From positions 176,221 through 240,220 of the forward strand of contig JAJVIF010000002.1 in the NCBI GenBank assembly GCA_022072165.1: a stretch of DNA of 64,000 nucleotides, read 5' to 3'. Both the position numbers and the translations under genes were made by a program. This DNA comes from a bacterium (GTDB taxonomy: Bacteria > JAJVIF01). Below the pieces are notes generated by a model. That model ran no database searches. It worked only from the letters and a program-made list of their open reading frames with translations, and was not told where the DNA came from. This document shows, piece by piece, positions 11,461 through 60,746 of this stretch; within the stretch, counting starts at the first letter, position 1, and each line of letters opens with the position of its first letter.

Positions 11461-11473
11461 CGGCGCGCTGGCG

Positions 11474-24520: not shown

Positions 24521-24584
24521 GTGCGCCTCCTGCAGGGAGTGACATTGAGGACGTGAACCGGGGAACGGCGTCGGAACCCCAATG

Positions 24585-24618: not shown

Positions 24619-24643
24619 GACTGCAGTTTGTCAGCAATTTGGG

Positions 24644-27283
24644 CTATTCCCAGAACAGGGCTTCCAGCTCCTGGCCTTCAGTAAACGCCCCGAAGCGGGT
24701 CGACTGGAACACCATCGCCCAGCGTCGATCCGCCAGACGGACTGTTACCGGGAAGCGCTGCAGGATCCCAGTCGCAGACGGCACCATCGTGGTGTTCGGC
24801 ATGGCTGCAATCGTAGCGATGGAGTCGGATTGCTGGAAGATCTTGCTGGTCATGGGCGTGCCGAAGTTTGAGCCGCCGGACATCAGCATCCCCTGCCCAT
24901 CCGGGGCGAAGGCCAGGTACGGCTGTGCGCTCCCGAGAATGCCAGTCAACGCGGTGGTGGAGGCGGTCCAGACAGTGCCGTCATAGGTCATCAGCCGGAT
25001 GTTGGTCAGGTCGCAGTGCGTCAGCCAGATGGTTCCATTCGGGCTGGTCGCCATGACGATCCGGAAGGAGTCAACCGGAACGCTGGTCAGAACGGACTCC
25101 GAACCCCAGACGCCCCCGGTGGTCCGGTTCCACTTGGTCATACAGGCACTGCTGACCGCGGAACCACCCAGGTGCGGGGTCTTGAGGGTATCCCAGGCCG
25201 TGATCCACTCGTTGGAGAGAGTCGAAGTCAGGGAGGCCGACAGGATGCGACCGCTCCAGCCTCCACCTCCGGACTGCGATGTCACATAAGACGTTGTGCC
25301 GATCAGTTCCTGCGGCTGCCAAACTCCCCCGACGGTCCGGATGGCATACATCTGCCCCGACACCGCCGGGATGCCGCCACCATTGACCGCAGCCGGGTCT
25401 TGTGGTGGCTGGAAGTGCGCGACATAGCCGAGTTCATCGGCATAGTTGCGGGCAATCCAGCCGTAGTTCCAGCCCCCGGTTCCGGGGGTGGAGGTGATGT
25501 TCACCGGGGCCGACCAGACGCCTCCGGTGTTGTGGATGTACCGGACGTTGTTCACACTCGCCAGGAACGACACATGGAGCCGGTCATCGCTGGTGATCGC
25601 CATCCCCACCGGGAAGACGCCACCACCGCCTGATGTGAAAATCTCGGTGGGAGCAGACCAGTCCGAGGAGCAGGGCGCGAGGGTCTGGTGGAAGATACTG
25701 TACGGCGACCCGGCGCGGTAATGAATCAGATGCGCGGTGCCGGTGCTGTCGATGCCAATCACCGGCGATGTCCGGGACTGATCTTCCCAGCGGTTCCAGT
25801 AGGTGTCGTTGGTGATCCGGATCGGCGTGGTGGACCAGGAGGGGGGGCCGGTGATCGCCAGCAGCGAGCTGGCGATGTCGAATCCCGCCGGACTCCCATC
25901 ACTCACCCGCAGCGCGACAGTGGGGGTCCCCACTGCACTGAACGACTGGGTCGCGATGACACCCGTGGCATCGACCGTGAAGTTGCTGCCGTCGTAATCC
26001 CAGTCCCATTCGTAAGAGACGATCGGATTGGTGCCCGGCACGCTGCTGGAGGCATCGAAAGTTTCGATGATGCCGATGGAGAGGTCTCCCCCCAAACAGC
26101 GAGTGAAAGCGGCGGTCGGCGGCTCGGCCACATCCTCCACCGACACATCAAAGACCTGATAGGTCACATAGCTGCCAAAGCTGACGGGCGTGGTGAGATT
26201 CTCTTCGAGCCCGACTCCTTGATTCGAGTCGGTGACCGTCACCAGCCCGAAGTAGTCCCCTTCACCGGCCGAGGCTCCATTCGTGATGAGGGTCGAGGCA
26301 GTGAGTGGGGTCGGGTCGCTGCCGGTTCCGCTGAGACTCAGGGTCACCGGCGCGGAGGTCACCCCCGGCACCTGCAGTGTGGCAGAAGCAACATCACTCC
26401 CGAGTCCCAGGCCATGTTTCCAGTCCCAGATGTCGACCTGGTACTGCGCGGTCGAACTCGGCTGCCCGGCCTGCAGATCATTCGCAAGTTCGGTCACCGC
26501 GACTTTCCACGCGGCATTGCCGGCGAACTTCGGCAGGTCGTACTGTGGATTCTGGCGAGTCGCCCGGACCGCTGACTGCCCATAGTCCGCCGTGAGATAG
26601 AGCCGCGCCTGGAACGTGTTGCCCGTGGAGAGGGTCAGCGCGAGGGTATCGATGCTGGTCTGGCCGGGGAAGAGGACGTTGAAGCCGGCGGGCGACTGAT
26701 AGTTAAACGGCGCGGATGAAGGGTCCTCCCGCAGGATCACATAGGGCTGGACCGGGGCGGCGGTGTAGTCCGGCTGGCTTCCTGGATGCGTCACGAGCCA
26801 GGTGTTGGAATACCCATCGGCGTTGGCCAGGACTCCGGGGGCGGCACTGACACCACTCAGATTCACCGGAGCCCGGTCTGTGACCACGAAGCACTTCACA
26901 TTGAAGATCCCCAGGTCCGGGCGATTCGCCGGGCTGAAGGGATGCGTGATTTGTACATCGACTTCGATGGTGTCCGGCGCGGGACGCCGGACCGCGATCA
27001 CTCTGAAGTTGTCGCCGAATGTTTTGTTGAACGCCGGGGTAAGTCCAAGTTCGCTGTAGTCATCGCCGATGGCGGCGGACTGACGTACGGGGGTGAGCTC
27101 GGCATGATTCGTCGTCAGATCGATCATCAGATCGGCGGCGAACAGCGGCCCGGTGGAAGGGTCCTGTGCCAGTGCCAGCGCTGCCGACTGCTCCTGGGCT
27201 GCCGGAGAAACCGGGGTCGCACTCCGCTGACAGGAAAGCAGGAAGAGGGCAGGCACCATGAGGGCCAGAGCTGGGGTACGCAT
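24644..27283 (-). CDS. array paralog 4: lipoprotein, unassigned N-module + PKD-like + Asp-box-like propeller
   Basis: ATG 27283 with AAGGAG upstream. Lipobox FLLS|C. Blocks ITHPFSPANRPDLGIFNVKCFVV, YLTADYGQSAVRATRQNPQYDLPKFAGNAAWK, VDIWDWKHG and DYFGLVTVTD. PKD-like FDASSSVPGTNPIVSYEWDWDYDGSNF. Strands GGVWSAP, GGVWQPQ, GGVWGSE and GTVWTAS. Ends ALFWE. Confidence 0.88.
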   Translation of the reverse strand: MRTPALALMVPALFLLSCQRSATPVSPAAQEQSAALALAQDPSTGPLFAADLMIDLTTNHAELTPVRQSAAIGDDYSELGLTPAFNKTFGDNFRVIAVRRPAPDTIEVDVQITHPFSPANRPDLGIFNVKCFVVTDRAPVNLSGVSAAPGVLANADGYSNTWLVTHPGSQPDYTAAPVQPYVILREDPSSAPFNYQSPAGFNVLFPGQTSIDTLALTLSTGNTFQARLYLTADYGQSAVRATRQNPQYDLPKFAGNAAWKVAVTELANDLQAGQPSSTAQYQVDIWDWKHGLGLGSDVASATLQVPGVTSAPVTLSLSGTGSDPTPLTASTLITNGASAGEGDYFGLVTVTDSNQGVGLEENLTTPVSFGSYVTYQVFDVSVEDVAEPPTAAFTRCLGGDLSIGIIETFDASSSVPGTNPIVSYEWDWDYDGSNFTVDATGVIATQSFSAVGTPTVALRVSDGSPAGFDIASSLLAITGPPSWSTTPIRITNDTYWNRWEDQSRTSPVIGIDSTGTAHLIHYRAGSPYSIFHQTLAPCSSDWSAPTEIFTSGGGGVFPVGMAITSDDRLHVSFLASVNNVRYIHNTGGVWSAPVNITSTPGTGGWNYGWIARNYADELGYVAHFQPPQDPAAVNGGGIPAVSGQMYAIRTVGGVWQPQELIGTTSYVTSQSGGGGWSGRILSASLTSTLSNEWITAWDTLKTPHLGGSAVSSACMTKWNRTTGGVWGSESVLTSVPVDSFRIVMATSPNGTIWLTHCDLTNIRLMTYDGTVWTASTTALTGILGSAQPYLAFAPDGQGMLMSGGSNFGTPMTSKIFQQSDSIATIAAMPNTTMVPSATGILQRFPVTVRLADRRWAMVFQSTRFGAFTEGQELEALFWE
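25876..27283. repeat. about 1.4 kb direct repeat, copy A (5' part of paralog 4)
   Basis: Aligns by eye, colinearly, with 28659..30066 at an offset of about 2783 nt. Even the antisense shadow ORFs are shared (MMRVEAVSGVGSLPVPLRLRVTGAEVTPGTC at 26283 and 29066). Boundaries are approximate. Confidence 0.8.
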
Positions 27284-27423
27284 TCGGGACTCCTTCGCAG
27301 GACGCGGAGATGCTCAAGGGACGACAGAGCGTTGGATGGCTCCATCTTACTGCGAATCTTGATGCCACGACCAGCAGAAGGCCGCTTGTGGCCTCGAACC
27401 GTCGGTAGCGGGGACAGTCAGAC

Positions 27424-30066
27424 TTACTGCCAGAACGAGCTTTCGAGCTCCATACCGCTCTGCCAGGCACCGTAGGTTTCGCCCTCCCAGAGGGTTACCC
27501 AGCGGCCATGACCGAGGGAACCGACCTGCGGGAAGAAGCGTCGCCCAGTCCCGGCGGCCAGGACTGTCAGGTCCGGCGAGGCGGCGATGGCGGCTGGTGT
27601 GTCGGTCTGGAGGAAGCGCTTTGCCCGGACCACCTGTCCGGTGGAAGCCACGGAACTGGTGACGAGCATCCCAGCTCCAGTCGCCTGATCAAAGGCAATC
27701 TGGAAATGCCCGGAGCCGCTCACCGAGTGAATCAGGGTCAGGGTCGGACTCCAGGCCGCGCCATCGTAGGTCGCCAACCGGACCTGAGCGGAGGTTTCTA
27801 CGCCCATGAACAGTGTCCCGCTCGGAGCGCGGCGCAGATGTGGCCGGTCATGCAACGACAGGGCGGTGTAGAGCGATGCCGGAGCCTGCCAGGTGCCGCT
27901 GTTAGTACGTGCCCACATGACATTGGAACTGGAAGAGACCGTACCCGCTCCCAGGAACGGATTCTTGAGGTTGGACCAGGCCGCGACCCAGTCGCTGCCG
28001 CTGGTCCCCTCGAGGGTCAGACTCGGGACAGACCCCTGTGAGTGATTGAGCTTGTGGTCCATCGCCCCGATCTGCTGGAGGGCGGTCCAGCTCCCAGAGA
28101 CATAGCGTGTGAAGTAAATCGGCGACGGGGGCTCGGGGATGCCATCCGTGGGGCCGCCACCACTGGCCGATGGCAACTCCCGCAACAGCGCGAAGCCCAG
28201 CTGCCCCGATCCATTCACCGCCAGATTGGGGGTAGACCAGTACCCCGGTCCAACGTTGGTCGTAATCGGCACCATGGCCGACCAGGTCCCATTGGTCTCC
28301 CGGGCCATCCACCCCTGCTCGGTGCCGTTGTAGGTCCCGGTCACATGCAGGCGATCATCGGGTCCGATGGCGAGACTGATGGGAACCCAGAGCTGATTCC
28401 CGATCGTGTGAATCTGCTGAGCCGCGGTCCAGGTGCTGGTGCAGGGGTCCAGGGACTGGTAGTACATGGTGAAATCGTAGAGCGGTGCGACACTGCCGTA
28501 GTCGTAGTAGACGATGTGCACCACGTTATTGGAGTCGGTCACCATCCCGTTCCCGATTTCGCTGTAGTCCCCGAACTGATCCCAGAAGCTGTTGTTGGTG
28601 ACCCGCATCGGCGTCCGCCAGGAGGCAGTCGGATTGATCGCCATGATGGTCGTGGCGATGTCCCAGCCGGTAGGCGTGCCATCACTGACCCGGAGTGCGA
28701 CGGTCGGCGTTCCTGCGGCGCTGAACGGATGGGTCGCGGTGATACCCATGGCATCGACCGTGAAGTTGCTGCCGTCGTAATCCCAGTCCCATTCGTAGCT
28801 CGTGATGGCGTTGGTGCCAGGTGTGCTGCCTGACGCATCGAACGTCTCCCCGATGCCCGTCCCCAGGTCCCCGCCGATGCAGCGCGTGATCGCGGCGGTC
28901 GGCGGCACGCCGACAACTTCCACTGCGACAGGAAAGACCTGATAGGTCACATAGCTGCCGAAACTGACGGGCGTGGTGAGATTCTCTTCGAGCCCGACTC
29001 CCTGATTCGAGTCGGTGACGGTCACCAGCCCCCAATAATCGCCTTCACTGGACGAGGCTCCATTCGTGATGAGGGTCGAAGCGGTCAGCGGGGTCGGGTC
29101 ACTCCCGGTCCCGCTGAGACTCAGGGTCACCGGCGCGGAGGTCACGCCCGGGACCTGCAGAGTGGCGGATGCGACATCGCTCCCGAGGCCCTGCCCATGC
29201 TTCCAGTCCCAGATGTCCACCTGGTACTGCGCGGTGGAGGCAGGCTGCCCGGCCTGCAGGTCGTTCGCAAGCTCGGTCACCGCGACCTTCCATGCGGCGT
29301 TGCCGGCGAACTTCGGCAGGTCGTACTGCGGCGTCTGACGAGTCGCCCGGACCGCAGACTGCCCATAGTCCGCCGTCAGATAGAGCCGCGCCTGGAAGGT
29401 ATTGCCCGTGGTGAGGGTCAGTGCGAGGGTGTCGATGCTGGTCTGGCCGGGGAAGAGGACATTGAAGCCAGCGGGCGACTGATAGCTAAACGGAGCGGAG
29501 GAGGGGTCTTCCCGCAGGATCACATAGGGCTGAACCGGGGCGGCGGTGAACTCCGGCTGGCTCCCGGGATGGGTCGCGAGCCAGGTGTTGGAGTACCCAT
29601 CGACATTGGCCAAAACGCCCGGTGCAATGCTGACGCCACTGAGATTCGCAGGTGTCCGGTCAGTCACCACGAAGCACTTCACATTGAAGATCCCCAGGTC
29701 CGGGCGACTCGCCGGACTGAAGGGATGCGTAATCTGCACATCGACTTCGATCGTGCCTGGCGCGGGGCGTCGGACCGCCACGACCCTGAAGTTGTTGCCG
29801 AAGGTTTTGGTGAACGCCGGAGTCAATCCAAGCTCGCTGTAGTCATCGCCAATGGCGGCGGACTGACGTACCGGGGTCAGTTCGGCGTGATTCGTCGTCA
29901 GGTCGATCATCAGATCGGCGGCGAACAGCGGCCCGGTCGCCGGATCCTGCGCCAGCGTCGGAGCTGCTGATTGCTCCTGGGCTGCCGGAGCAACCGGTGT
30001 CGCGCTTCGCTGACAGGAGAGCAGAAAGAGTCCGGGCAGTAGCAATGCCAGCGAGAGGATGCGCAT
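27424..30066 (-). CDS. array paralog 5: lipoprotein, unassigned N-module + PKD-like + Asp-box-like propeller
   Basis: Trimmed to ATG 30066 (MRILSLALLLPGLFLLS|C). The N-terminal 470 aa or so are nearly identical to paralog 4, and the C-terminal half is diverged. Strands NGTWSAM, SGSWTAL, SGTWQAP and GAAWSPT. Ends SSFWQ. Confidence 0.87.
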   Translation of the reverse strand: MRILSLALLLPGLFLLSCQRSATPVAPAAQEQSAAPTLAQDPATGPLFAADLMIDLTTNHAELTPVRQSAAIGDDYSELGLTPAFTKTFGNNFRVVAVRRPAPGTIEVDVQITHPFSPASRPDLGIFNVKCFVVTDRTPANLSGVSIAPGVLANVDGYSNTWLATHPGSQPEFTAAPVQPYVILREDPSSAPFSYQSPAGFNVLFPGQTSIDTLALTLTTGNTFQARLYLTADYGQSAVRATRQTPQYDLPKFAGNAAWKVAVTELANDLQAGQPASTAQYQVDIWDWKHGQGLGSDVASATLQVPGVTSAPVTLSLSGTGSDPTPLTASTLITNGASSSEGDYWGLVTVTDSNQGVGLEENLTTPVSFGSYVTYQVFPVAVEVVGVPPTAAITRCIGGDLGTGIGETFDASGSTPGTNAITSYEWDWDYDGSNFTVDAMGITATHPFSAAGTPTVALRVSDGTPTGWDIATTIMAINPTASWRTPMRVTNNSFWDQFGDYSEIGNGMVTDSNNVVHIVYYDYGSVAPLYDFTMYYQSLDPCTSTWTAAQQIHTIGNQLWVPISLAIGPDDRLHVTGTYNGTEQGWMARETNGTWSAMVPITTNVGPGYWSTPNLAVNGSGQLGFALLRELPSASGGGPTDGIPEPPSPIYFTRYVSGSWTALQQIGAMDHKLNHSQGSVPSLTLEGTSGSDWVAAWSNLKNPFLGAGTVSSSSNVMWARTNSGTWQAPASLYTALSLHDRPHLRRAPSGTLFMGVETSAQVRLATYDGAAWSPTLTLIHSVSGSGHFQIAFDQATGAGMLVTSSVASTGQVVRAKRFLQTDTPAAIAASPDLTVLAAGTGRRFFPQVGSLGHGRWVTLWEGETYGAWQSGMELESSFWQ
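28659..30066. repeat. about 1.4 kb direct repeat, copy B (5' part of paralog 5)
   Basis: See copy A. Similarity decays just after the PKD-like domain and within the signal-peptide codons. Confidence 0.8.
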
Positions 30067-30152
30067 GAAGCCTGGGCCTCGTGGAGGGGCAGATATGCAG
30101 TGCACTCAGTGTACGTCTGAACCGTGCCGGAACTGACCCTCCAGGATGAGAA

Positions 30153-36196: not shown

Positions 36197-38803
36197 ATGA
36201 CTCACCATCCCGCCCCTGTGGCCTGGCGCACCCTCTGTTTCCTGGCCTTGCTCCTCCCCGCCTGCCAGCGTCTGGCCACCACGCCCACACCGACCGCGAC
36301 ACCACCAGTCGCCTCAGCCACGCTTCCCGGAGGGGAGGCCGCAGGCGGGGAACGTCCGCTGCAGGTCCTGCGGGTGGTGCTCCATCCTGAGAGCGGGCTG
36401 GTCGATGTGGAGCCCCTGCGTCAGGGACAGGCCGGTCTGCAGGATGTGCTGGAGACGGTCGATGTCACGCAATACTTCACCAATGCTCCTTGTACGAGCT
36501 GCCTGAAGATTGTGGGAGTCGGGACCAGTGTCGCAGGACGTCCCACCCTCGCCGTCCAGGTCCGGCATCCGTTCACGAGTCCGGCCCCCGGCACGCAGCA
36601 GCGACAGGACCTCGCGGTCTTCAATGTGGAAGCGGTGGTCCGCTTTGATGAAACAGAGCAAAGCCTCACCAGCTTTCCTGGCACCGGCGTCTCGGCGGTC
36701 ACGAGCACCCGCCTGGTGAACGCCGATGGCTATACGGGCAATCTGGATGCGGCCTACGATGAAGATTACCGCCCGACAGTCGCGACGATTCATCCCTACC
36801 GGCTCTTTTTCCGCGACTACTCCCGGGGGACATTTGATGCGGCGAGTCCCCAGGGGTTTCCAGACTACAGCGACATCCGGGGCTTCCTGGCGATGGGCCA
36901 GGGCCAGGGTCCGGATGAACAGCTGTTCGAGTTTCAGGTCCCCGCTGGCGGCGGTCCCATCCGCTTTGATCTGGTGCTGCAGGCGAGCTTCGGTGTGGCC
37001 TCGGCCAATGTTGGTGAACGGGCCGCACCGGAGTATCGCCTTCCGCAGTACAACAAAAAGGCGGCGAGCGAAGTCCGGGTCGGGCTGTCGGATATCGTGC
37101 CGGGGAATCTGAGTGGACGCGGCCTGCTATCGGGGATCGGGACCAGCGGGGCGCAGGTCCGGCTGTCGGTCCTCGACATCACCGATGCCTCGACCGGGGT
37201 CACTGTCGGGCCAGACCTGGACCAGCTCCGGGCGGTCTCGGATGTCGCGCAACTGCGGATTGAGATTCCGGGCGTCCTCAACAGCGCGATCACTATCAAC
37301 AATCCGGCGTCGGTCTTCGAGGGGGGCACGGGCGATGATCCGGTGCAGCCGCTGACCTACGGTGTCGGGATCACTAACCAGGCTGCCGCAACCCAGGGGA
37401 CCTACTTTGGGGTGGTCCGGGTCGGCGATTCCTACCCGGTTGGAGGGAACACGGTCCTGCCGCAGGATGCCCATCGCAAAGGGGTCGTGCCGGGCTTCAC
37501 CGATCCCTTCCCCCTGGCTGAAGTAGCGACCTATCAGGTCTTTGAGGTTCCGGTCAAGGCCAACACCATTACGCGCTTTGAGGATGCGTCGGCGGGCGAC
37601 GCCCTGGGCACGAGTCTGGCCTATGGCGACTTCAACGGCGATGGACTGCTGGATCTTGCCGTGGGGGCTTTCGAGGCGGATCCAGGGGGTGTCAGCAATG
37701 GCGGGCAGGTCCGGGTCTACTACCAGCTCCCCAACGGCTTTTTGCCCGTCCCGGTGGTGCTGCAGGAAGCGACGCCGGTGCTGAACAACCGCCTCGGATT
37801 CTGCGTCGCTGCCGGGGATGTCACGGGTGACGGCAAAGATGATCTCCTCGCGAGCGCCATCAACGGCAACATCCCGGGACGAGTCGCGGTCTTCCGGTCA
37901 CAGGGGATCGGCTTCCTGCCGCCCCTGACAGTCCAGGATCTCTCCCTGCCGGTCAACAGTCGCTTCGGCTGGACAATCACCCTGGCGGACATCAATGGCG
38001 ATGGACGTCAGGATGCCTACATCGGCGCGCCGGAAGCCCTGGGGAGCTTTTTGCGGGAGGGGCTGGTCTATCGCTACCTGGGAGGTCCCGGCGGGATTTC
38101 CACGCCGCAGACTCTTTCAACTCCGGATCCGCAGCTGGATGCGTACTTTGGCTCCAGCATCGCGGTCCTCAGGGAGCCCTCCGGGACCCCCTCACATCTC
38201 GCCATCGGAATGCCGGGATACAACAGTGCCACCGGACGGGTCTATGTTTATCCCATTAACGCTGGCGGGACGCTTGGGACGGCGGTGGTGGTGAATCCGA
38301 CCAGCGGTGGTCCGAACGACGCCTACGGTTACAGCCTCGCGACGGCCGACTTTACGCAGGATGGCCGGATGGACCTCGTGGTCGGTGCACCAGGATCGGC
38401 GAGCACCATGACAGGACGGGTCGATCTGGAAGTGCACCTGCCAGGCGGGAGCTTTGTCCGGGGGGCGACGCTCACCGCGACTGGCGCGGACACCTTCACC
38501 TTCGGCTCGTCGCTCGCCATCGGCGACTTCGACTTCGATGCTCGCATGGACATAGCGGCGGGCGGAATCATGCTCGAAGCGAGCGGGGTCCCGGCTTCCG
38601 GTCGAGTCGCGGTCTTCCCCGGGGGACGGAGCCTCGGCGGGAATGCCCTGGAGTTCCACGCCCCGATTGTCTCCACCGATCAGCTCTTCGCCCGATCGCT
38701 GCTGGGCTTCCCACAACCGGGGAAGGCGGACCTGCTGCTCGTGGGAGCCCCCGGCGATGATCCGGGAGGGGCGACCAACGCCGGCAGTGTGTATCTGTAT
38801 TAG
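36197..38803 (+). CDS. lipoprotein: same unassigned N-module fused to FG-GAP/VCBS repeats
   Basis: ATG 36197 with GGAGG 10 nt upstream. Lipobox LLLPA|C. N-module blocks VRHPFTSP..QDLAVFNVEAVV, NADGYTG, IHPYRLFFRD, LVLQASFG, PEYRLPQYN, SDVAQLRIEIPGV and GTYFGVVRVGD. C-terminal FG-GAP repeats YGDFNGDGLLDLAVGA, AGDVTGDGKDDLLASA, LADINGDGRQDAYIGAP, TADFTQDGRMDLVVGAP and IGDFDFDARMDIAAGG. Confidence 0.88.
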   Translation: MTHHPAPVAWRTLCFLALLLPACQRLATTPTPTATPPVASATLPGGEAAGGERPLQVLRVVLHPESGLVDVEPLRQGQAGLQDVLETVDVTQYFTNAPCTSCLKIVGVGTSVAGRPTLAVQVRHPFTSPAPGTQQRQDLAVFNVEAVVRFDETEQSLTSFPGTGVSAVTSTRLVNADGYTGNLDAAYDEDYRPTVATIHPYRLFFRDYSRGTFDAASPQGFPDYSDIRGFLAMGQGQGPDEQLFEFQVPAGGGPIRFDLVLQASFGVASANVGERAAPEYRLPQYNKKAASEVRVGLSDIVPGNLSGRGLLSGIGTSGAQVRLSVLDITDASTGVTVGPDLDQLRAVSDVAQLRIEIPGVLNSAITINNPASVFEGGTGDDPVQPLTYGVGITNQAAATQGTYFGVVRVGDSYPVGGNTVLPQDAHRKGVVPGFTDPFPLAEVATYQVFEVPVKANTITRFEDASAGDALGTSLAYGDFNGDGLLDLAVGAFEADPGGVSNGGQVRVYYQLPNGFLPVPVVLQEATPVLNNRLGFCVAAGDVTGDGKDDLLASAINGNIPGRVAVFRSQGIGFLPPLTVQDLSLPVNSRFGWTITLADINGDGRQDAYIGAPEALGSFLREGLVYRYLGGPGGISTPQTLSTPDPQLDAYFGSSIAVLREPSGTPSHLAIGMPGYNSATGRVYVYPINAGGTLGTAVVVNPTSGGPNDAYGYSLATADFTQDGRMDLVVGAPGSASTMTGRVDLEVHLPGGSFVRGATLTATGADTFTFGSSLAIGDFDFDARMDIAAGGIMLEASGVPASGRVAVFPGGRSLGGNALEFHAPIVSTDQLFARSLLGFPQPGKADLLLVGAPGDDPGGATNAGSVYLY

Positions 38804-47244: not shown

Positions 47245-49932
47245 TTAGCTTGTCAGCATACGGGACCGGAAGAGTTCCAGGGCGTCCGGAATCTGTGACC
47301 CGTCCTTACCCCCGCCCTGTGCCATGTCCGGACGTCCGCCGCCCCCGGCTCCCAGGAGCTTGCCGACCTCGCCGATCAGCTTGCCTGCCTGATGCCCCGC
47401 AGCGATGACATCCTCTGAGAGGGCCACCAGGGTGTTGTACTTGCCTTCCTCGCCGCCGATCAGCAGGATGGCGCAGCTGGCCTCCCGGTCGCGGATCGCC
47501 TGCGCGATGGTCCGGAGGGTCTCGGCACTCGCTCCCTCGATCTGTGATGCGAGGACCAGGGTCTGGTCGCGACGGTTCCCCTTCGCGATGAGGTCACCGA
47601 CCTGGCTCAGCGCCAGTTGTTCCTTGAGCGTCGCCAGCTCCGTCCGGAGAGCTTTGGATTCTTCCCGGAGGCGATCCAGGCCCCCCAGGAGATCCTCGAG
47701 GGTCCGCTTCGCTTTGAGTTCGCCGGCGAGCCGCGCCACCATCGCTTCCTGTTCGAAGAGATACTCCATCGCCCGCATACCGGTGTAGCCCGTGACCCGC
47801 CGGGTCCCCGCCGCGATGGATTCTTCCCGCACGAGGACAAATGCCCCCGCCTCCGCTGTATGGTCCAGATGGGTGCCACCGCAGAGTTCCAGCGACACCG
47901 GTCCCATGCGCAGGACCCGCACCTGGTCGCCATACTTTTCCCCGAAGAGGGCAACTGCCCCCATCGCCCGGGCATCGGCGATGGGCATCTCCATTTTTTC
48001 GACCGGGAAGTCCGCCAGGATCCACTCATTGACGAGCGCATCGACCTGGGCGATCTGTTTTGCGGTCATCGCCTCGAAGTGCTTGAAGTCGAAGCGGACC
48101 CTGTCCGGCTCCACCAGCGACCCCGCCTGCTCCACATGCTCCCCCAGGACCTGCTTCAAAGCGCTGTGCAAAAGATGCGCGGTGGAGTGCGCCCGCATGG
48201 TGGGGGTCCGACGCTGCGTGTCAATCTCGGCCCGGACCGGTGTCTCCGGCTCCAGCGCTTCGGTGGCGCCGCTGACCAGTTTGCACCGATGCAGGAACAC
48301 GCCGCCGGGGGTTTTCTGCGTATCGAGGACCTCCAGCACGAAGCGTCCGTCCATGGCGGAGATAGTGCCGCGATCGCCAATCTGCCCCCCAGACTCGGCA
48401 TAGAAAGGCGTCTGCTCCAGTGCCACCAAAACTTCGGCCTCACCAGCACTGATAGCCCCCAGCAGGAGGGTGTCGCCGCTGGTTGCGCCGGAGTAGCCCA
48501 GGAACAGTGTCGGAGGGAACTGGTCGAAGGCCTGCATGATCGAGGCGGCATCGCTGCCGGACCCTATCGCGCCGAGCTTGGCTTTGGTATCGGCCTTGGA
48601 GCGGGCGCGCTGTTCTGCCAGGGCAGCCTGAAACGCCGCCTCATCGACCGTCATACCGTGGTCTTCCACCAGGTCTTTGGTGAGATCCAGCGGGAAGCCA
48701 TAGGTGTCGAAGAGGGTAAAGGCCTTGTCGCCGGGGAAGGTCGCAGGGAGAGTTCCGGCATTGGACGTTTGCAGATCTTCCAGTTCCCGGGCTAGCAGGG
48801 TCTCCCCGCGATGCAGGGTGCGGAGGAAGAGTTCTTCTTCGGTCGCAATGCGATCCGCGATGAAGGCTCCCTTCTGTACGATCTCGGGATACTGGGTCCC
48901 CATGAGGTCGCGCAGGATCGGCAATGCCCCGGCCCAGACTCCGGGTCCGAAGCCGAGGCGATTCCCCCAACTCATGGCGCGACGCATGATGCGGCGCAGG
49001 ACATACCCCCGTCCTACGCGATCCGGCAGGACCCCGTCCGCCATCAGGAACGCGGTCGCCCGGAGATGGTCCGCCAGGACGTAGTAAGGATTGACCCGGG
49101 CTCCTGCTAGCTGGTTTTTGGTTTCGGTCTTGAAGTAGCCAATCAGCGGCTGGAATCCGTCGGTCTCAAAGACCGTGTCCTTTTGCTGCATCACCACACA
49201 CATCCGCTCCAGCCCGGCGCCGGTGTCGACATTCTTCTTCGGCAGTTCCACCAGGGAGCCATCCGCCTGCCGATCAAACTGGGTGAAGACCAGGTTCCAG
49301 ATTTCGATCCAGCGGCCATAGGCCGACCCGGGACCGTCATACTCCCCGTTGGTGGAGCCGAAGCGGGGACCGAGGTCGTAGAAGATTTCGGTATCCGGAC
49401 CACAGGGGCCGGTCTCTGCCATCACCCAAAAGTTGTCTTCATCGCCAAGGCGGACAATCTTCGATTCGGGCAGGCCGACTTTGCTCCGCCAGAGGTCGTA
49501 GGCCTCCTGATCGTTTTCATGCACCGAGACCATGAGCTTCTCGGTGGGGATGCCCAGGACTTCGGTCAGGAAGGTCCAGGCCCAGGGGATGATCTCCGCC
49601 TTGAAGTAGTCCCCGATGCTGAAGTTCCCCAGCATTTCGAAGAAGGTGCAGTGCCGGGGAGTCCGTCCCACCTGCTCGATGTCGAGGGTCCGGATGCACT
49701 TCTGGATACTCACCATGCGTGGCGATGGTGGAGTTTCCTGGCCGGTGAAGTACTTCTTCAGGGGCGTCATGCCGGCATTGATCAGCAGGATGGTCGGATC
49801 ATCGAAGGGGACCAGGGGCGCGGAGGCCAGGATGTGATGCTCCGAGCCGGGGAGGTCGCGGAAGTTCTCGAGGAAGAGGGTCCGGATTTCCTGGGCGGAC
49901 CGGACCGGCATCTGGGTGGTGGAAGTGGCCAT
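47245..49932 (-). CDS. alaS: alanine--tRNA ligase
   Basis: Track ORF starts at TTG 49971; the first ATG is at 49932. Canonical AlaRS sequence (EIRTLFLENF, FEMLGNFS, editing-domain HSTAHLL, C-terminal DHHA1 GGGGRPDMAQGGG). Confidence 0.95.
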   Translation of the reverse strand: MATSTTQMPVRSAQEIRTLFLENFRDLPGSEHHILASAPLVPFDDPTILLINAGMTPLKKYFTGQETPPSPRMVSIQKCIRTLDIEQVGRTPRHCTFFEMLGNFSIGDYFKAEIIPWAWTFLTEVLGIPTEKLMVSVHENDQEAYDLWRSKVGLPESKIVRLGDEDNFWVMAETGPCGPDTEIFYDLGPRFGSTNGEYDGPGSAYGRWIEIWNLVFTQFDRQADGSLVELPKKNVDTGAGLERMCVVMQQKDTVFETDGFQPLIGYFKTETKNQLAGARVNPYYVLADHLRATAFLMADGVLPDRVGRGYVLRRIMRRAMSWGNRLGFGPGVWAGALPILRDLMGTQYPEIVQKGAFIADRIATEEELFLRTLHRGETLLARELEDLQTSNAGTLPATFPGDKAFTLFDTYGFPLDLTKDLVEDHGMTVDEAAFQAALAEQRARSKADTKAKLGAIGSGSDAASIMQAFDQFPPTLFLGYSGATSGDTLLLGAISAGEAEVLVALEQTPFYAESGGQIGDRGTISAMDGRFVLEVLDTQKTPGGVFLHRCKLVSGATEALEPETPVRAEIDTQRRTPTMRAHSTAHLLHSALKQVLGEHVEQAGSLVEPDRVRFDFKHFEAMTAKQIAQVDALVNEWILADFPVEKMEMPIADARAMGAVALFGEKYGDQVRVLRMGPVSLELCGGTHLDHTAEAGAFVLVREESIAAGTRRVTGYTGMRAMEYLFEQEAMVARLAGELKAKRTLEDLLGGLDRLREESKALRTELATLKEQLALSQVGDLIAKGNRRDQTLVLASQIEGASAETLRTIAQAIRDREASCAILLIGGEEGKYNTLVALSEDVIAAGHQAGKLIGEVGKLLGAGGGGRPDMAQGGGKDGSQIPDALELFRSRMLTS

Positions 49933-50040
49933 GAGACTCGCGCAAGGCTCCTTGAGGACCGGGCATGACAACGCCCTCCGCCAGTACCGGAGGGCGTCAG
50001 TGATTCTACCAGTCCTGCCGGTGCCGGTTAGCCGGTGATG

Positions 50041-55239: not shown

Positions 55240-55437
55240 ATGGATATCGCCCTGGCCCAGACCTCGACCCAGCTCGCCCAGACCGCTGTCCAGGCGGCAG
55301 CGACTGTCGCCCTGCTGAAGAAGTCCGCAACGCTGCCGCAGCAGGCGATGCTGCAGCTCATCCAGCGATCCGTGGTCCCGCCGCCCCCAGCGGCGAATCC
55401 GCCCGGGGTCGGCACCCTCCTCGACATCCGGGCCTGA
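55240..55437 (+). CDS. YjfB-family small protein ('putative motility protein')
   Basis: Trimmed to ATG 55240. The sequence MDIALAQTSTQLAQTAVQAAATVALLKKSATLPQQAMLQLIQ..PPPP..GTLLDIRA matches the YjfB pattern as I remember it. Confidence 0.55.
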   Translation: MDIALAQTSTQLAQTAVQAAATVALLKKSATLPQQAMLQLIQRSVVPPPPAANPPGVGTLLDIRA

Positions 55438-55560
55438 ACCCCGCATCCCCGGGCGAAACTGCTGCCCTGTCGACAACATGCCCTCTTTTGTTCCACGGGG
55501 GAACGCCAATCGTTGTCCCTTGCCCTCGCACAACCGTGGGGCGTATCCTTGCATCCTCCT

Positions 55561-55709
55561 CATCGGCATGATGGGAACCCGGTGTGAATCCGGGACGGAC
55601 GAGCCGCTGTAAGCGGGGAGTCGGCAGCCACGATGCCAGTGTGTCCGGACAGGACATGCGAAGGCGGCTGACCGATGGTGATCCGCGAGTCAGAAGACCG
55701 ATGCCGATG
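55561..55709 (+). promoter_or_regulatory. cobalamin (B12) riboswitch aptamer
   Basis: 9-bp P1 helix CATCGGCAT (55561-69) / ATGCCGATG (55701-09). Conserved core GGGAACCCGGTGTGAATCCGGGAC..GAGCCGCTGTAAGCGGGGA. CCAGTG..GCGAAGGC element. B12 box AGTCAGAAGACC (55688-99). A possible TTGCCC-18-TATCCT promoter lies just upstream. The regulated ATG is at 55774. Confidence 0.85.
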
Positions 55710-55773
55710 CCATTGCCGACCTTTTCTGCCGTCGTACGGTCTCGACTTGCCGTACAGAAAGGCGCTCCCGCCC

Positions 55774-57996
55774 ATGTTCATCCCTGCCCACAGACGCTGG
55801 TGGCTGGCCACCTGCAGTCTGTTGCTCTGCAGCCTGCTGCTGATGAGTTGCAGTCGTACGACCTCCTTCATCCCACATAACCCCGTCGATGTCACACCAC
55901 ATTTGGCATCTCTGCCACTCGCGGCGGCGGACCTGGTCATCGATGCCGACACCGGCACGTTGAGTCTGCTGGAGCGCGAAGGCATGGCCGCCGGCGACCC
56001 GCTGGTCTTTGCCGCGACTCCCCTCTTCCGACGATCCGCTCTGCGTCTGGAGGGGATTCGACGCCTTTCCGATAATCGGCTGGGACTGACCCTGGCGATC
56101 CGGCATCCACTGGCAGCGCCGGAGCCGGGGACGATCGATCCGTCGTTTCACGCCACTGATGTCCTGGGCATCCTGGTGTTTGATGGGTCCGGCACAATCT
56201 CTATAGGGAGCGAGCGAGTACATGCTGGCTGGCTGGACGCGCATGGCTACACCGATCTGTTGCAGCAGCAACTGACCAATGGATTTCAGACCACTGCCAC
56301 CTGGCATCCCTATGTACTTCTGAGCGCCGACGGGCGTCAGCCAAACTACGATCCCGCGACCCTGCATGGCTGGACCGATCTGGTAGCCCCCCGGGGTCTG
56401 AACGTTTTGCCGCAAGGGTGCGACTGGCGTTCCACAGAGCTCATCCTGGATTTGCCTCCAGGAGAGCATCGGGTCCGGCTGGCGATCCAGGCCTCGATTC
56501 AGCAGGTGCCGGTGGGCAACACGGAAGCACCGCTCCCGGCGCAGTACGCCTATCCCGAAGGGAATCTGGCAGCCGCATGGGGAGTCGGGGCGGAGATTTG
56601 GAACAACGATCTGACCGCCGGGACACCGGCGAGCGGTGCCGAGCTCGATGTCCTGGTCTACGACTGGCAGCATGGGACCCCCGCCACAAGTCCCTGGTCC
56701 ATCAGCGACCACAAAAGCATGGTGCGACAGGTCAGCGATGTCGCCAGTGTCCGGGTCCTGGTCCCAGCGCTGGGCCTCGACCTCACACAGCCAGGGAGTG
56801 CGGCGGTGAGCGGCACAGGACGTCCGGGGAGCCCGCTACGTTTCACGTTCCCCCTGACCAATCAGACGGGAGTCGGCGCGGGGACCTACTGGGCGCTGAT
56901 CGATGTCCGCGACACCCGGAGCGCGGAAGGGCTGCGTGACAGCGATGGTCAGGTGCTGACTGCTCCCCAGGGCTTCCGCACTGGGCAGATTGTCCCGGTG
57001 TCCGTGTTCCCTGCAACGGGTCCTGAGCGACTGGTTGGACTGCAACTCGCGACACAGCATCAGATTTTTGTCGGACCCCACCTGCCGGTCTCGCTGACTG
57101 CCCGAGGGCGACTCAGTACCGGTGCGCTGATCCCACTGGACCAGGGGAGCATCGAACATCGCCTGCTGAGCGGGACTGGCGCGATGCTGACTGGTGCCAC
57201 GGTCGAGCGGACCCTCCCTCGCGATGAGCGGGGGACCGCACTCCTGGAGTCGCGGCTCACAGAAGGACCAGCCCTGATTCGGGGTCGCACGACTTTGGTG
57301 TTGGGGGATCCTTATGCCGATCAGGTGGTGGACTATGCGCCGCTCTGCGGAGCGGGCGGGAGTGGCGCGAATCCGCAGCTGGCGCTGGGGGGGCCCCGTG
57401 GCGCAGGACGCTTTTCCGGCAACGCGGATCACATTGTGTCGCTGGGATATGGCGGCAGTCTGACCCTGGCGTTCACCGATGGGGGCATGCTGGATCGTCC
57501 GGGTCCAGACTTCATCGTCTTCGAAAACGCGTTTGAAATCGGGCAGGACCCGGACCAGGTCTTCACGGAAACTGTACGGGTGGAAGTCTCCGCGAATGGC
57601 ACCGACTGGGTTGCCTTCCCGATGGACTATCGCCCCATCGGAGAACTGCCGTGGCGTCGCCCCTGGAACTTCACGGGCGTCGCCGGGATTGCCCCCGTAC
57701 TGGCCAATGTAGTCACCAACAGCCTCGACCCCACCAATCCGGCGGAAGCCGGAGGCGACCTCTTCGACCTCGCGACCATCGGGCTCCCCTACGCCGCCTT
57801 CGTACGACTCACCGGGACCGGCATCGACAGCACCAGCCCCTGCTACAGCGGCTGCCCGCTGTCGAACCGGATGACTGACGTGGATGGTGATCTCATTGAT
57901 GACGAAGGCAAACGGGCGACCTGCAGTTCGGTGATCGGCGGCCCTGACATTGACGCGGTCGCGATTGTTGCGGGGCATCAGGGCTTCCCGGAATGA
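55774..57996 (+). CDS. lipoprotein: same unassigned N-module + Ig-like domain + unassigned beta-rich C-terminal domain; riboswitch-controlled
   Basis: Trimmed to ATG 55774 (MFIPAHRRWWLATCSLLLCSLLLMS|C). N-module blocks IRHPLAAPEPG..VLGILVF, AHGYT, WHPYVLLSAD, LAIQASI, AQYAYPEGNLAAAW, LDVLVYDWQHG, SDVASVRVLVPALG and GTYWALIDVRD. C-terminus contains GPDFIVFENAF..VRVEVSANGTDW. Confidence 0.85.
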   Translation: MFIPAHRRWWLATCSLLLCSLLLMSCSRTTSFIPHNPVDVTPHLASLPLAAADLVIDADTGTLSLLEREGMAAGDPLVFAATPLFRRSALRLEGIRRLSDNRLGLTLAIRHPLAAPEPGTIDPSFHATDVLGILVFDGSGTISIGSERVHAGWLDAHGYTDLLQQQLTNGFQTTATWHPYVLLSADGRQPNYDPATLHGWTDLVAPRGLNVLPQGCDWRSTELILDLPPGEHRVRLAIQASIQQVPVGNTEAPLPAQYAYPEGNLAAAWGVGAEIWNNDLTAGTPASGAELDVLVYDWQHGTPATSPWSISDHKSMVRQVSDVASVRVLVPALGLDLTQPGSAAVSGTGRPGSPLRFTFPLTNQTGVGAGTYWALIDVRDTRSAEGLRDSDGQVLTAPQGFRTGQIVPVSVFPATGPERLVGLQLATQHQIFVGPHLPVSLTARGRLSTGALIPLDQGSIEHRLLSGTGAMLTGATVERTLPRDERGTALLESRLTEGPALIRGRTTLVLGDPYADQVVDYAPLCGAGGSGANPQLALGGPRGAGRFSGNADHIVSLGYGGSLTLAFTDGGMLDRPGPDFIVFENAFEIGQDPDQVFTETVRVEVSANGTDWVAFPMDYRPIGELPWRRPWNFTGVAGIAPVLANVVTNSLDPTNPAEAGGDLFDLATIGLPYAAFVRLTGTGIDSTSPCYSGCPLSNRMTDVDGDLIDDEGKRATCSSVIGGPDIDAVAIVAGHQGFPE

Positions 57997-59123
57997 TCCG
58001 CACCGGTCTGTTCACCACAGGAGTGTTGTTCATCGCCGGGTGTGCCGTCGGCAACAGCGGCATCGGACCAGCCACACCATCGGGCGAGTTGCCGGCGGTG
58101 CCGCAGGGCGGGACTGTGCTCATTGCCAACAGCCTGAGCGAAACGCTCTCTCGTCTGGACCTCACCACGACGCCTGCCCGGATGGAACCGCAGGTAGCGC
58201 TGACGGGTCAAGCGCCGAACGCGCTGCTGCTTTATGGGTCAGAGATTCTGGTGGTGAATTCGCTGTCGAACTCCGTGCAGCTACTCGATCGTCAGACGCT
58301 CTCGCAGGTGGCGGAGTACAGCCTCGGGAGTCGCACGAATCCCTGGGACGCCGTCATCGTGGGCGACACCGCCTGGGTCTCCTGCTGGGTGAGCCAGGAA
58401 GTCGTTGGGCTGGACCTCACCGATGGCACGATCCACCAGCGGATTGCGGCACCCACCAGCGACGGGTTGCCTCATGTGCCGGGAGTCACGACCCGGGCGT
58501 ATCCGCAGGGGATGGCGCAGGACCTGAACGAGTCGCGGATCTACGTGGCGTTGCCGAATCTGAACGCTCAATTTTTGCCGGCGGGTGCGGGAGTCCTCTG
58601 GACCCTGACCCGGGATGGTGACTCTTTTCAGTCCGATGGCATCACGGTGCTGGAGCCTGCGGCGAACGCGGCCGATGTCACGGTGAGCAACATCGGGGGG
58701 CGTCCGGCGGTCATCGTGGCCTGCGCTGGCGACTTTGAGTCGGGGACTGGCTATCGGGAAAACGGCACCCTGACCTGGCTCGATGGCGTGACCTTGCAAG
58801 TGCGCGAGCACAGGCTGGTGGAGAGCGCACCGGTCCGGGTGACCGCTCGTGGCCCCTGGGCGTATGCGCCAGGAGCGCAGACAGGAGATGTGGTCGCGCT
58901 GGAGTTTGGGGCCACTGCTGCCCCGGTGCGCATCACCCTCCCGGACGCGGGGGCGGGGCAGAACTACGCTTCCGCCGTGGCCTTTGGCGATGACACGACC
59001 CTGCTTGCGTTGCAGTTCAACAGCGATCGCCTGTATGCCATCGATGTGCGGACCTGGACGGTCAGTGGTGGCGTGACGACCGGCGATGGTCCGGTCGCTC
59101 TGCTGGTGCTCCCCCGGGAGTGA
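57993..59123 (+). CDS. lipoprotein, YVTN/YncE-like seven-bladed beta-propeller
   Basis: ATGA overlap with the upstream gene. Lipobox FIAG|C. About seven periodic strands (VLIANSLSETLSRLDL, ILVVNSLSNSVQLLD, AWVSCWVSQEVVGLDL, IYVALPN, AVIVACAGDF, DVVALEF, LLALQFNSDRLYAIDV). Confidence 0.8.
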   Translation: MIRTGLFTTGVLFIAGCAVGNSGIGPATPSGELPAVPQGGTVLIANSLSETLSRLDLTTTPARMEPQVALTGQAPNALLLYGSEILVVNSLSNSVQLLDRQTLSQVAEYSLGSRTNPWDAVIVGDTAWVSCWVSQEVVGLDLTDGTIHQRIAAPTSDGLPHVPGVTTRAYPQGMAQDLNESRIYVALPNLNAQFLPAGAGVLWTLTRDGDSFQSDGITVLEPAANAADVTVSNIGGRPAVIVACAGDFESGTGYRENGTLTWLDGVTLQVREHRLVESAPVRVTARGPWAYAPGAQTGDVVALEFGATAAPVRITLPDAGAGQNYASAVAFGDDTTLLALQFNSDRLYAIDVRTWTVSGGVTTGDGPVALLVLPRE

Positions 59124-59138: not shown

Positions 59139-60044
59139 TCACCACTTAATGGGGTCTTTCACCTTGCCAGTGGGGGCCGCCTTTTCGACAAATTCGATGA
59201 TCTTCCCGGAGACATCGACTCCGCTGGCGGTTTCGATTCCCTCGAGGCCCGGGGTGGAGTTCACTTCCATCACGACCGGGCCATGATTCGAGCGGAGCAT
59301 GTCGACCCCGGCGACGCCGAGTCCCATGGTGGCGGCCGCCCGGATGGCAGTGGAGCGTTCGGCAGGCGTCAGCTTCACGGCCTTCGCAGTCCCGCCGCGA
59401 TGCAGGTTGCTCCGGAATTCGCCGGGGGCGCCGGTCCGCATCATCGACGCCACCACTTTGCCCCCCACCACGAAGGCCCGGATGTCGCTCCCCCCGGCTT
59501 CTTTGATGAATTCCTGCACGAGGATGTTGGCGTTGAGCTCCCGAAAGGCCTCGATGACCGACTTCGCCGCTTTGTTGGTCTCTGCCAGGACCACCCCGAT
59601 CCCCTGGGTCCCTTCCAGGAGCTTGATCACCAGGGGCGCGCCGCCGACTGTGGCGATGAGACCATCGATGTCCTTGGTGGCATGGGCATAGCCAGTCACC
59701 GGAAGACCGATCCCCTTGCGGGCCAGGAGCTGCAGGGACCGGAGCTTGTCCCGGGACCGGGTGATGGCCTGCGATTCGTTCGTTGGGAAAACACCCATCA
59801 TTTCAAACTGACGGACCACCGCCGTGCCATAGAAGGTGTAGCTGGCACCGATGCGGGGAATGATGGCATCGAAGCCGGTGAGTTCTTCCCCCTGGAAGTA
59901 GATCTGCGGCTTGAGGCTGGTGATGTTCATGTAGCAACGGAGATAGTCGATCACATGGATGTCGTGGCCCCGGGCCTTCCCTGCTTCCACCAGCCGTCGG
60001 GTGGAATAGAGGGCGCGATTGCGGGAGAGGATGGCGATCTTCAT
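59139..60044 (-). CDS. rimK: ATP-grasp ribosomal protein S6--L-glutamate ligase
   Basis: Track ORF (360 aa) trimmed to ATG 60044. [19 protein letters not shown], then [21 protein letters not shown] and [31 protein letters not shown]. Confidence 0.92.
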
Positions 60045-60532
60045 CGGGGGGTGGGCTCCTCCGGTCGGGACCGGCGGGATATACGGCGGGGCCGTTTGCT
60101 GAGGAGATACGAATGGCCGGGATCCACCAGGAAGCGGCCGCGAATCGCCTCCCGTCCGAGCAACAGGCGAAAGCCCATTTCCGGACGGGGGGTCAGGGTC
60201 AGCTCGATAGGCCAGAGCCACGCACCGAGCTGGAGAGCGGTCTGGATCACGGGACGCTCTTCCGCGTGTCCGCTGGAGCTGCGGATGATACGGACAGATA
60301 CCAGGGGGGCTTCGGCCGGTTCAGCGATTTCGGGATGTCGATGAAAGGGGTGAAAGAGAAAGCGGACCACCCGTCCGGAGGGCGACTCGGCGATCTCGAT
60401 GTCGGAGGCATGGAGGGCACTGGTCCGGGCCCCGGTGTCGATCTTCGCCTGCAGGGGCGACAGATGGAGGTCCGGGAACAGCACCCACTCACGCCAGCCA
60501 ATGACCGGAAGCTCAGTTGCGGGAACGGGCAC
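60041..60532 (-). CDS. RimK-associated retropepsin-like 'ATP-dependent zinc protease' (PF05618-type)
   Basis: Motif [36 protein letters not shown] overlap with rimK. The track start (60667) runs through the tRNA and its promoter, so the gene was trimmed to the only GTG, at 60532. The start remains uncertain. Confidence 0.7.
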
Positions 60533-60592
60533 GATGGAGCGGTCCCCTGGTCCTTGGGTGGCAAAGTGAGCAACAGCGGCCGGGCGGGTCGG

Positions 60593-60621
60593 TTGACAGG
60601 GCCGATGCCGGAGAGTATAAG
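60593..60621 (+). promoter_or_regulatory. sigma-70-type promoter of the initiator tRNA
   Basis: TTGACA (60593-98), 17-nt spacer, TATAAG (60616-21). The tRNA 5' end lies 11 nt downstream of the -10 element. Confidence 0.65.
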
Positions 60622-60632
60622 GATTCGGTTGC

Positions 60633-60704
<72 letters not shown>

Positions 60705-60715
60705 AAGCTGACCGG

Positions 60716-60746
60716 CCGCCCCATCGTCATCGGTGGGGCGGTTTTG
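60716..60746 (+). terminator. rho-independent terminator of the tRNA
   Basis: CCGCCCCA-tcgtcatcgg-TGGGGCGG followed by TTTTGTT. Confidence 0.8.

Follow-up and report, generated by a model that had tools for sequence, protein, structure and literature searches.

The 64-kb window analysed here (the whole stretch of DNA, taken from contig JAJVIF010000002.1) carries a cobalamin riboswitch followed by two overlapping lipoprotein genes, hereafter gene A and gene B, and this report concerns the probable role of the pair in corrinoid capture. A match to the Rfam family RF00174 at 55547-55722 is the sole riboswitch match within the window. The locus is composed of the following features.

55547-55722, + strand: cobalamin riboswitch aptamer (RF00174), covariance-model match from Rfam
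55599-55603, + strand: candidate L5 loop ACGAG, its position set by the Rfam alignment
55734-55755, + strand: expression-platform hairpin, 6-bp stem GUACGG/CCGUAC with the 10-nt loop UCUCGACUUG (55740-55749)
55756-55762, + strand: Shine-Dalgarno (SD) sequence AGAAAGG, adjoining the hairpin on its 3' side and separated from the ATG by 11 nt
55774-57996, + strand: gene A, 740-residue lipoprotein with lipobox LLLMS-C26; a second, independent gene caller placed the start at the same position in a metagenome contig of identical sequence
Residues 27 to ~420 and ~420-527 of A, + strand: N-module (stalk) and linker; the N-module is common to six paralogues in the window
57355-57993 (residues 528-740 of A), + strand: C-terminal domain of A (C-domain), a beta-sandwich and putative distant homologue of the BtuH B12-binding domain
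57993-59123, + strand: gene B, 376-residue lipoprotein with lipobox FIAG-C17, a seven-bladed YVTN-type propeller

The aptamer matches the full RF00174 model (positions 1-189) with 78.0 bits (E 1.6e-17), the gathering score being 31.5. Its 9-bp P1 helix, formed by CATCGGCAT (55562-55570) and ATGCCGATG (55701-55709), can be read directly in the sequence, as can the core GGGAACCCGGTGTGAATCCGGG, i.e., GGGAACCCGGUG...AAUCCGGG, and the B12 box AGTCAGAAGACC, i.e., AGUCAGAAGACC (55688-55699); the ATG of gene A at 55774 lies 65 nt past the end of P1. The original prediction, made from the bare letters, had placed a B12 riboswitch with these elements and this spacing before gene A, and the covariance model confirms it. 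Exact and near-exact searches of metagenome contigs for the aptamer core returned zero matches. In the orthologous locus L001 (related loci are numbered with the prefix L), the RF00174 match reaches 75.4 bits; the P1 sequences of the window and L001 differ, with complementarity mostly kept.

Downstream of the aptamer, no intrinsic terminator was found in the leader. Of the two expression platforms envisaged beforehand, SD sequestration or a terminator, the latter is therefore not seen, and a conserved hairpin is present directly 5' of the SD sequence. Its stem in L001 reads CCGCGG/CCGCGG, which gives three compensatory pairs relative to the window, and nine of the ten loop bases are the same in L001, the eighth changing from U to C. 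The GAAAGG of the SD sequence is invariant across the window, L005 and L001. Within the hairpin loop, CUCG is complementary to CGAG of the candidate L5 loop, so that the hairpin is a candidate L13-type kissing loop that may pair with L5. Translational repression through L5-L13 kissing loops is a known mode of class-I cobalamin riboswitches, and the combination of a conserved hairpin, an adjacent SD sequence, CUCG/CGAG complementarity and no terminator fits it. Anti-SD pairing by CCUUUUCU (55720-55727) was dropped in favour of the conserved hairpin and its loop because that sequence is conserved in neither L005 nor L001.

Genes A and B overlap in the string ggaATGAtcc and, to judge from this ATGA overlap, B is translationally coupled to A. 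The rimK gene (59139-60221, - strand) is convergent and ends 15 nt beyond the stop codon of B, which agrees with the earlier view that the regulated unit comprises just the two lipoproteins. The description of B as a lipoprotein with about seven YVTN blades likewise stands: in addition to the lipobox at C17, B matches the YVTN repeat model TIGR02276, and its structural model (predicted local distance difference test score, pLDDT, 85.2) contains 28 strands arranged as seven four-stranded blades.

Close relatives of the pair are scarce: A has a single copy at 93% identity, and B has three relatives at 49-53% identity. L001 (A 55% and B 49% identical) is the only divergent close relative with readable upstream DNA, and it keeps the thyX synteny, the riboswitch and the overlapping A and B orthologues. 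L002 and L003 are cut by contig ends, and in both A runs straight into B; in the window clade, all four members with readable sequence have A overlapping B and no transporter gene between them. When an alignment of six B sequences was used as the locus query, only four loci were retrieved. All relatives of B with readable upstream DNA lie in a riboswitch operon, and the same riboswitch stands upstream of a B homologue in L167. In L009 (Planctomycetota) and L168, the operon runs in the order riboswitch, A-like protein of ~690 residues, transporter of ~660 residues, B-like lipoprotein of ~385 residues; the first protein of L168 aligns with residues 68-713 of A, i.e., nearly its full length with the N-module included (29% identity, E 1.6e-43), and the last protein of this operon type is 33% identical to B. 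L006 has the same gene order on a contig truncated upstream. Because the transporter of L009 and L168 stands between near-full-length orthologues of A and B, the window clade has the same system minus the transporter gene. The claim that no transporter is involved thus holds for the operon in the window but not for the system, in which a BtuB-like TonB-dependent transporter is flanked by A and B orthologues elsewhere; the possibility raised in advance, that orthologous pairs might never be linked to B12 riboswitches or transport genes, did not materialize, L009 and L168 being linked to both.

The C-domain belongs to a large family, the PGPDFIVFENAF domain family, of ~5,000 clusters and without a Pfam model: 4,999 representatives of 50%-identity clusters were found at E <=1e-3 and 2,866 at <=1e-10. 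When species-representative genomes were searched for the conserved pattern of the C-domain, 164 relatives came up, and the best 80 of the 164 loci were studied; these come mostly from Polyangiaceae, Sorangium and other Myxococcota, together with Planctomycetota and scattered others. With a covariance model built from 22 aptamers of these loci, a same-strand upstream cobalamin riboswitch was detected in 59 of the 80, and for 32 of these 59 it lies no more than 1 kb from the domain match; the same model gave 0 matches on 386 kb of unrelated control loci.

The neighbours of the 80 C-domain genes were surveyed with a crude gene caller based on GC content at third codon positions (GC3) and BLAST clustering; since this caller places some genes on the wrong strand, the counts per operon category are approximate. 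A recurrent neighbour is a TonB-dependent transporter of ~650-720 residues with Plug and barrel domains in Pfam; of the NCBIfam models, TonB-B12 usually matches it best, at scores far under the equivalog cut-offs. Lipoproteins of ~380-480 residues also recur and fall into three clusters, of which c10 is the B family and c3 and c5 are related to c10 by hhalign (97% and 98%). Approximately, the 59 riboswitch-linked loci divide into 19 with a transporter, 6 with a transporter and a propeller, 11 with a propeller and no transporter, and 23 with neither, so that a same-strand TonB-dependent transporter occurs in 25 of the operons and a B-like propeller in 17. The 11 loci, of Myxococcota type, have the same transporter-less pair as the window; in L035 and L042, both checked with Pfam, the C-domain gene overlaps the propeller gene and the pair is followed by a convergent LysM/M15 peptidase gene, a layout equal to that of the window. 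The two domains are also found joined in one protein: a B-like propeller is fused to an A-type domain in L051 (2984-4924, Cytophagia) and L033 (6644-8851), and the propeller and C-domain are fused in at least five further representative clusters (P0171, P0177, P0234, P0205 and P0246). The propeller half of the L051 fusion matches BtuG1 directly (E 4.5e-4).

Several of these loci show peculiarities of their own. The L051 fusion protein ends in a segment matching the immunoglobulin-like domains of FlgD. In L040 (Sorangium cellulosum So0157-2), a second cobalamin riboswitch (10846-10993) lies just downstream of the C-domain gene, as is also seen in L007, L029, L046 and L057; it is followed at 11265-14725 by an 814-residue protein that by eye resembles the large subunit of class I ribonucleotide reductase and then by a likely small subunit, a pair that would place a B12-independent isozyme under the control of B12 if the identification by eye is right. 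In the same strain (8908-10426), the homologue has its signal peptide in one reading frame and its domain in another, which may reflect a frameshift or a sequencing error, since the So ce134 orthologue P0111 is intact. L060 (1022-6509), from a metagenome-assembled genome of Gammaproteobacteria, contains two convergent units, one with a riboswitch and a C-domain protein (+ strand), the other with a riboswitch, a transporter and a B-like propeller (- strand). Riboswitch-linked C-domain proteins of the Planctomycetota (Tepidisphaerales and Phycisphaerae) in L014 (8655-9713), L064 and L066 have partners with PEP-CTERM tails, and in L026 (8822-12430) the C-domain lies inside a 1,202-residue protein, where the call based on open reading frames may merge neighbouring genes.

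As regards the identity of the C-domain, Pfam scans of A, B and the linker yielded nothing useful, and no relevant Pfam match was found among 32 C-domain homologues. The model of the domain is a beta-sandwich (pLDDT 90.3). For comparison with BtuH, a profile was built from 43 BtuH-type domains of Bacteroidota btu loci, fetched with a BtuG1 fragment; it was validated by its recovery of 8BLW_B 386-662 at E 1e-127 and 7BIZ 215-492 at E 1e-98. Aligned by hhalign with these BtuH domains, a 255-sequence alignment of A-type domains gave 96.6% (E 5.6e-10), and a second comparison of the C-domain family with the BtuH profile gave 95.4% (E 2e-8). The motifs SLG-GG-IT-GF, G-x-DF-x-I-x-(G/E)NaF and E-x-x-x-V-x-VS-x-D are common to both. 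The string aligned in 7BIZ, GNAF-DGSS-E, has the spacing N, +2 F, +7 E, which fits residues N399, F401 and E406 of BtuH2, described as metal-site and corrin-contact residues (PMC13616437). N585, F587 and E599 of A align with these three; N585 and E599 are invariant in the family and F587 nearly so. The equivalence is inferred from spacing and alignment rather than superposition, and the C-terminal ligands of BtuH2, D522, S582 and E584, lie outside the aligned part. Taken as a whole, the comparison suggests that the C-domain, which had been regarded as unassigned, is a highly divergent, distant homologue of the BtuH B12-binding domain, the profile-profile link standing at 95-97%.

Like A, BtuH (BT1956 BtuH2, PDB 7BIZ; BT1488 BtuH1; the H-domain of BT1490) is a lipoprotein in a B12-riboswitch locus and consists of a stalk at the N-terminus and a globular beta-sandwich at the C-terminus, and, like the A-type domain, it occurs fused to a BtuG-type propeller. 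Unlike BtuH, whose stalk consists of three PKD domains, A has a lineage-specific N-module of ~400 residues; its family lies outside the Bacteroidota, in Myxococcota, Planctomycetota and deep lineages, and A in the window is not next to btuB. The C-domain also differs in having no similarity to BtuH at the BLAST or HMMER level and in leaving its second half unaligned. "Cell surface protein" is the name both of the 7BIZ entry and of two myxobacterial homologues, a hint that one or another annotation pipeline may already group them together.

The only curated model that touches the C-domain family is NCBIfam NF033170 (LIC_13355 family). It matches residues 515-667 of A at 64.3 bits with the full protein and 67.5 with the domain alone, and the C-domain together with all 32 sampled homologues at 64-68 bits (E 1e-17 to 4e-20, profile positions 53-213); as the cut-off is 120 bits, the C-domain proteins are relatives rather than members of the LIC_13355 family. 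LIC_13355 itself has been reported as upregulated in a host-adaptation model.

For gene B, Foldseek returned BtuG2, BtuG3, the BtuG homologue 3DSM and BtuG1 directly after its top match, at E 4e-12 to 3e-10. The template-modelling (TM) scores are 0.65-0.69 on the query and, on the target, 0.74-0.80 for BtuG2, BtuG3 and 3DSM and 0.41 for the 626-residue BtuG1 fusion chain; the root-mean-square deviation (rmsd) is 3.6-3.9 Å for most chains and 6.3-8.3 Å for 8BN0, 8P97 and 8BLW_B. Against a 50-sequence BtuG alignment, hhalign gave 96.9% for the B family and 98.9% for the merged propeller family (E 2.3e-17, ~340 columns). Both model and profiles suggest that B is a BtuG-like seven-bladed propeller lipoprotein and a remote homologue of BtuG. 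The proteins known as BtuG (BT1954 BtuG2, BT2095 BtuG3, BT1490 BtuG1; PDB 8BMZ, 8OKV, 8BLW, 3DSM) are, like B, riboswitch-controlled seven-bladed propeller lipoproteins of similar size, and the B orthologues in L006, L009 and L168 directly follow a BtuB-like TonB-dependent transporter, as in BtuG loci. In contrast to BtuG, B is only 14-15% identical, falls outside the BlastP E <1e-10 criterion against BT1490, BT1954 and BT2095 (B profile E 0.7), has no adjacent btuB in the window and lacks the Bacteroidota lipoprotein export signal context. Other B12-binding surface lipoproteins of riboswitch-controlled btu loci are BtuJ (DUF4465/IPR027828; beta-jelly-roll) and BtuK (PKD plus propeller; BtuK1 propeller). 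The PKD-plus-propeller architecture of BtuK is absent from both A and B, and DUF4465 was rejected as the identity of the C-domain, since DUF4465 is BtuJ and none of 32 C-domain family members matches it even at E <=1.

The N-module behaves differently from the C-domain. Residues 15-415 of A are 26-30% identical to six other lipoproteins of the window, and the N-module family first seen in the bare sequence is therefore real. These six paralogues bear PKD or FG-GAP heads, have no BtuH-like domain and share only the N-module with A; the RF00174 scan of the window found no riboswitch at any of them. Orthologues of A in L009 and L168 have the module too. Neither the N-module nor the linker of A matched a solved structure or a Pfam model, and an exact-sequence look-up of one N-module paralogue returned no record. 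By its distribution among these sequences, the N-module is best described as a generic, lineage-specific stalk or anchor, and it is the C-terminal domain of A, not the N-module, that is linked to B12. The riboswitch therefore does not serve as the regulatory handle on the N-module family that it had been taken for: because the module is common to unregulated paralogues, B12 control is uninformative on the function of that family. In the window, five N-module lipoproteins with PKD domains, of ~880-930 residues each, are arranged in tandem, head to tail, at 16350-30105 (- strand); a sixth copy with an FG-GAP propeller head lies at 36197-38803 (+ strand), and an unrelated 888-residue He_PIG protein is found nearby at 11474-14140 (- strand). 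This array is a lineage-specific expansion of surface lipoproteins in which one stalk module carries different heads.

We hypothesize that the locus encodes a B12-repressed corrinoid-scavenging pair, and assign this reading a probability of roughly two in three. Capture is strongly supported by the linkage to riboswitches and to transporters, by the gene fusions and by the resemblance to BtuG and BtuH in structure and profile comparisons. The corrinoid-capture device first proposed is upheld on these grounds, whereas its supposed different composition is not, the pair being BtuH-like plus BtuG-like. At high intracellular cobalamin, the class-I-type aptamer would bind cobalamin, and the conserved hairpin adjacent to the SD sequence would probably dock on aptamer L5 and block initiation of A translation, B following by ATGA coupling. 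When B12 is scarce, both lipoproteins would be made and displayed outside the cytoplasmic membrane, presumably exposed at the surface. A would hold its BtuH-like domain off the membrane on a stalk of ~500 residues (N-module and linker), and the domain may capture free corrinoid; B would take over this corrinoid or bind it independently and might hand it on to a transporter encoded elsewhere, which would be a BtuB-type TonB-dependent transporter if the host has an outer membrane.

A number of observations weigh against this reading. Neither a transporter nor a B12 gene turned up in those parts of the window that were annotated, and no B12-dependent enzyme or cob gene was visible there. The alanyl-tRNA synthetase AlaS (47245-49971, - strand) is at most 41-43% identical to its counterpart in any of 185,579 species-representative genomes, with the top matches (41-43%) scattered across phyla; the lineage of the window appears to be deep-branching and poorly sampled. 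No riboswitch was detectable in 21 of the 80 C-domain loci, six of which are truncated less than 1 kb upstream. For B, Foldseek ranks a generic S-layer protein of YVTN type first, and propellers match each other easily; among solved-structure sequences, a generic YVTN protein was all that the B profile matched with HMMER, BtuG being reached at E 0.7. For the C-domain, the top Foldseek match and the only solved structure below E 1e-3 is 8BLW_B (E 1.2e-4), a weak match with a TM of 0.45 and an rmsd of 13 Å, for which the aligned part of the target is not reported; 8BLW chain B is the BtuG1 protein, in which a BtuG propeller and a BtuH domain are joined (PMC10404256). BtuH2 (7BIZ) is absent from the top 50 Foldseek matches of the C-domain, the HMMER profile of the C-domain matched neither 7BIZ nor 8BLW among solved-structure sequences, and the hhalign alignment with BtuH covers the first half of the domain only (~105 columns).

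Of the competing explanations, the one that survives best, itself unlikely, places A and B on the cytoplasmic membrane of a lineage that has no BtuB route or no outer membrane, where they would form a corrinoid reservoir or act as partners of an ATP-binding cassette (ABC) or energy-coupling factor (ECF) importer; the loss of the transporter from an ancestral A-transporter-B operon would then be functional and not a relocation. The lack of a transporter gene between A and B in all four readable members of the window clade fits this possibility, as do the deep-branching position of the lineage and the failure to see any gene for TonB, ExbBD or the biogenesis of an outer membrane in those parts of the window that were annotated; moreover, BtuH/BtuJ homologues in Gram-positive Firmicutes are treated as an open question in the literature (PMC13616437). 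However, the transporter-less pair is shared by the 11 Myxococcota-type loci, and members of that phylum do have an outer membrane as well as TonB-dependent transporters, which in some cases lie nearby under riboswitch control. Absence from the operon is therefore not absence from the genome, of which 64 kb is seen here.

It is considerably less probable that A and B are regulated by B12 without binding corrinoids, the C-domain being a CBM32- or discoidin-like binder of a glycan or protein, e.g., for tethering cells to B12 producers or for docking onto the transporter, and the propeller a structural lid. CBM32, F5/8-type-C and neuropilin b1 domains do come next after 8BLW_B among the Foldseek matches of the C-domain; the sole functional study of Leptospira LIC_13355 reports experiments in which it bound host components and makes no mention of B12 (PMC11891782); and BtuK2, a propeller encoded in one of the Bacteroides btu loci, shows no cobamide binding (PMC13616437). 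Against these stand the 23 riboswitch-linked loci with neither a transporter nor a B-like propeller, where the C-domain gene alone behind a riboswitch suggests a stand-alone B12-related role, as well as the invariant or nearly invariant state of the residues aligned with the BtuH2 ligand and metal site, and the recurrent fusion to a BtuG-like propeller, which parallels BtuGH, where both halves bind B12. That the aptamer is a relic, or acts on the upstream 65-residue open reading frame or an antisense transcript and leaves the lipoproteins unregulated by B12, is barely credible, since, although no sigma-70 promoter-like site was found in the leader and the leader as a whole does not fold significantly more stably than its shuffled versions (z -1.38), the aptamer reaches 75-78 bits in each of two lineages with proteins ~50-55% identical, its orientation and spacing to A are kept, the platform hairpin covaries, and the riboswitch-then-gene arrangement recurs in 59 loci of other phyla.

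It is already known that riboswitch-controlled surface lipoproteins capture B12 for BtuB. BtuG has been reported as "exclusively found in the Bacteroidetes" on a BlastP 1e-10 definition (Wexler et al., PMC6143338), and BtuH was found in 37 gut Bacteroidota and three Firmicutes (PMC13616437). What is new here is that neither protein falls under the BtuG or BtuH sequence definitions, that the stalk is different and that the unit has no btuB. The survey points to remote homologues of BtuG and BtuH under B12 riboswitches in Myxococcota, Planctomycetota and deep lineages of soil and water metagenomes, and suggests that the capture machinery is widespread outside the Bacteroidota and can be encoded without its transporter. 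Two accessory lipoproteins can thus form a regulated unit alone, apart from btuB. In the literature that was searched, no paper was found that links the LIC_13355-like family, or lipoproteins of Myxococcota or Planctomycetota, to B12. If A and B do bind corrinoids, a testable function can be assigned to a family of ~5,000 clusters that has no Pfam model, A- and B-type genes need to be counted when environmental metagenomes are surveyed for corrinoid scavengers, and the role of Leptospira LIC_13355 needs another look.

A wider extension of the corrinoid-scavenging hypothesis, which we offer tentatively and regard as rather doubtful, is that the whole C-domain family, including LIC_13355, which is at present treated as a host-adhesion lipoprotein, is a phylum-spanning and hitherto unrecognised branch of BtuH-type corrinoid binders, which in the lineage of the window, with its BtuG-like propeller, forms a capture system without a TonB-dependent transporter; this would be, for example, a cell-bound B12 reservoir that feeds an inner-membrane importer. 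In the published riboswitch list, LIC_13355 is not reported beside either of the two known cobalamin riboswitches of L. interrogans, a further point against B12 capture. If the extension is true, lipoprotein-assisted B12 piracy would be an ancient, general strategy and not a speciality of gut Bacteroidota.

The remaining surroundings of the pair include the 65-residue open reading frame just upstream of the riboswitch (55240-55437, + strand), whose counterpart in L005 matches Pfam YjfB_motility. Beyond gene B, rimK overlaps an upstream PF05618 gene ("putative ATP-dependent zinc protease"), the two spanning 59139-60667 (- strand). A tRNA-Met (CAT) lies on the + strand within 60633-60743, with a strong terminator-like hairpin at 60714-60743.

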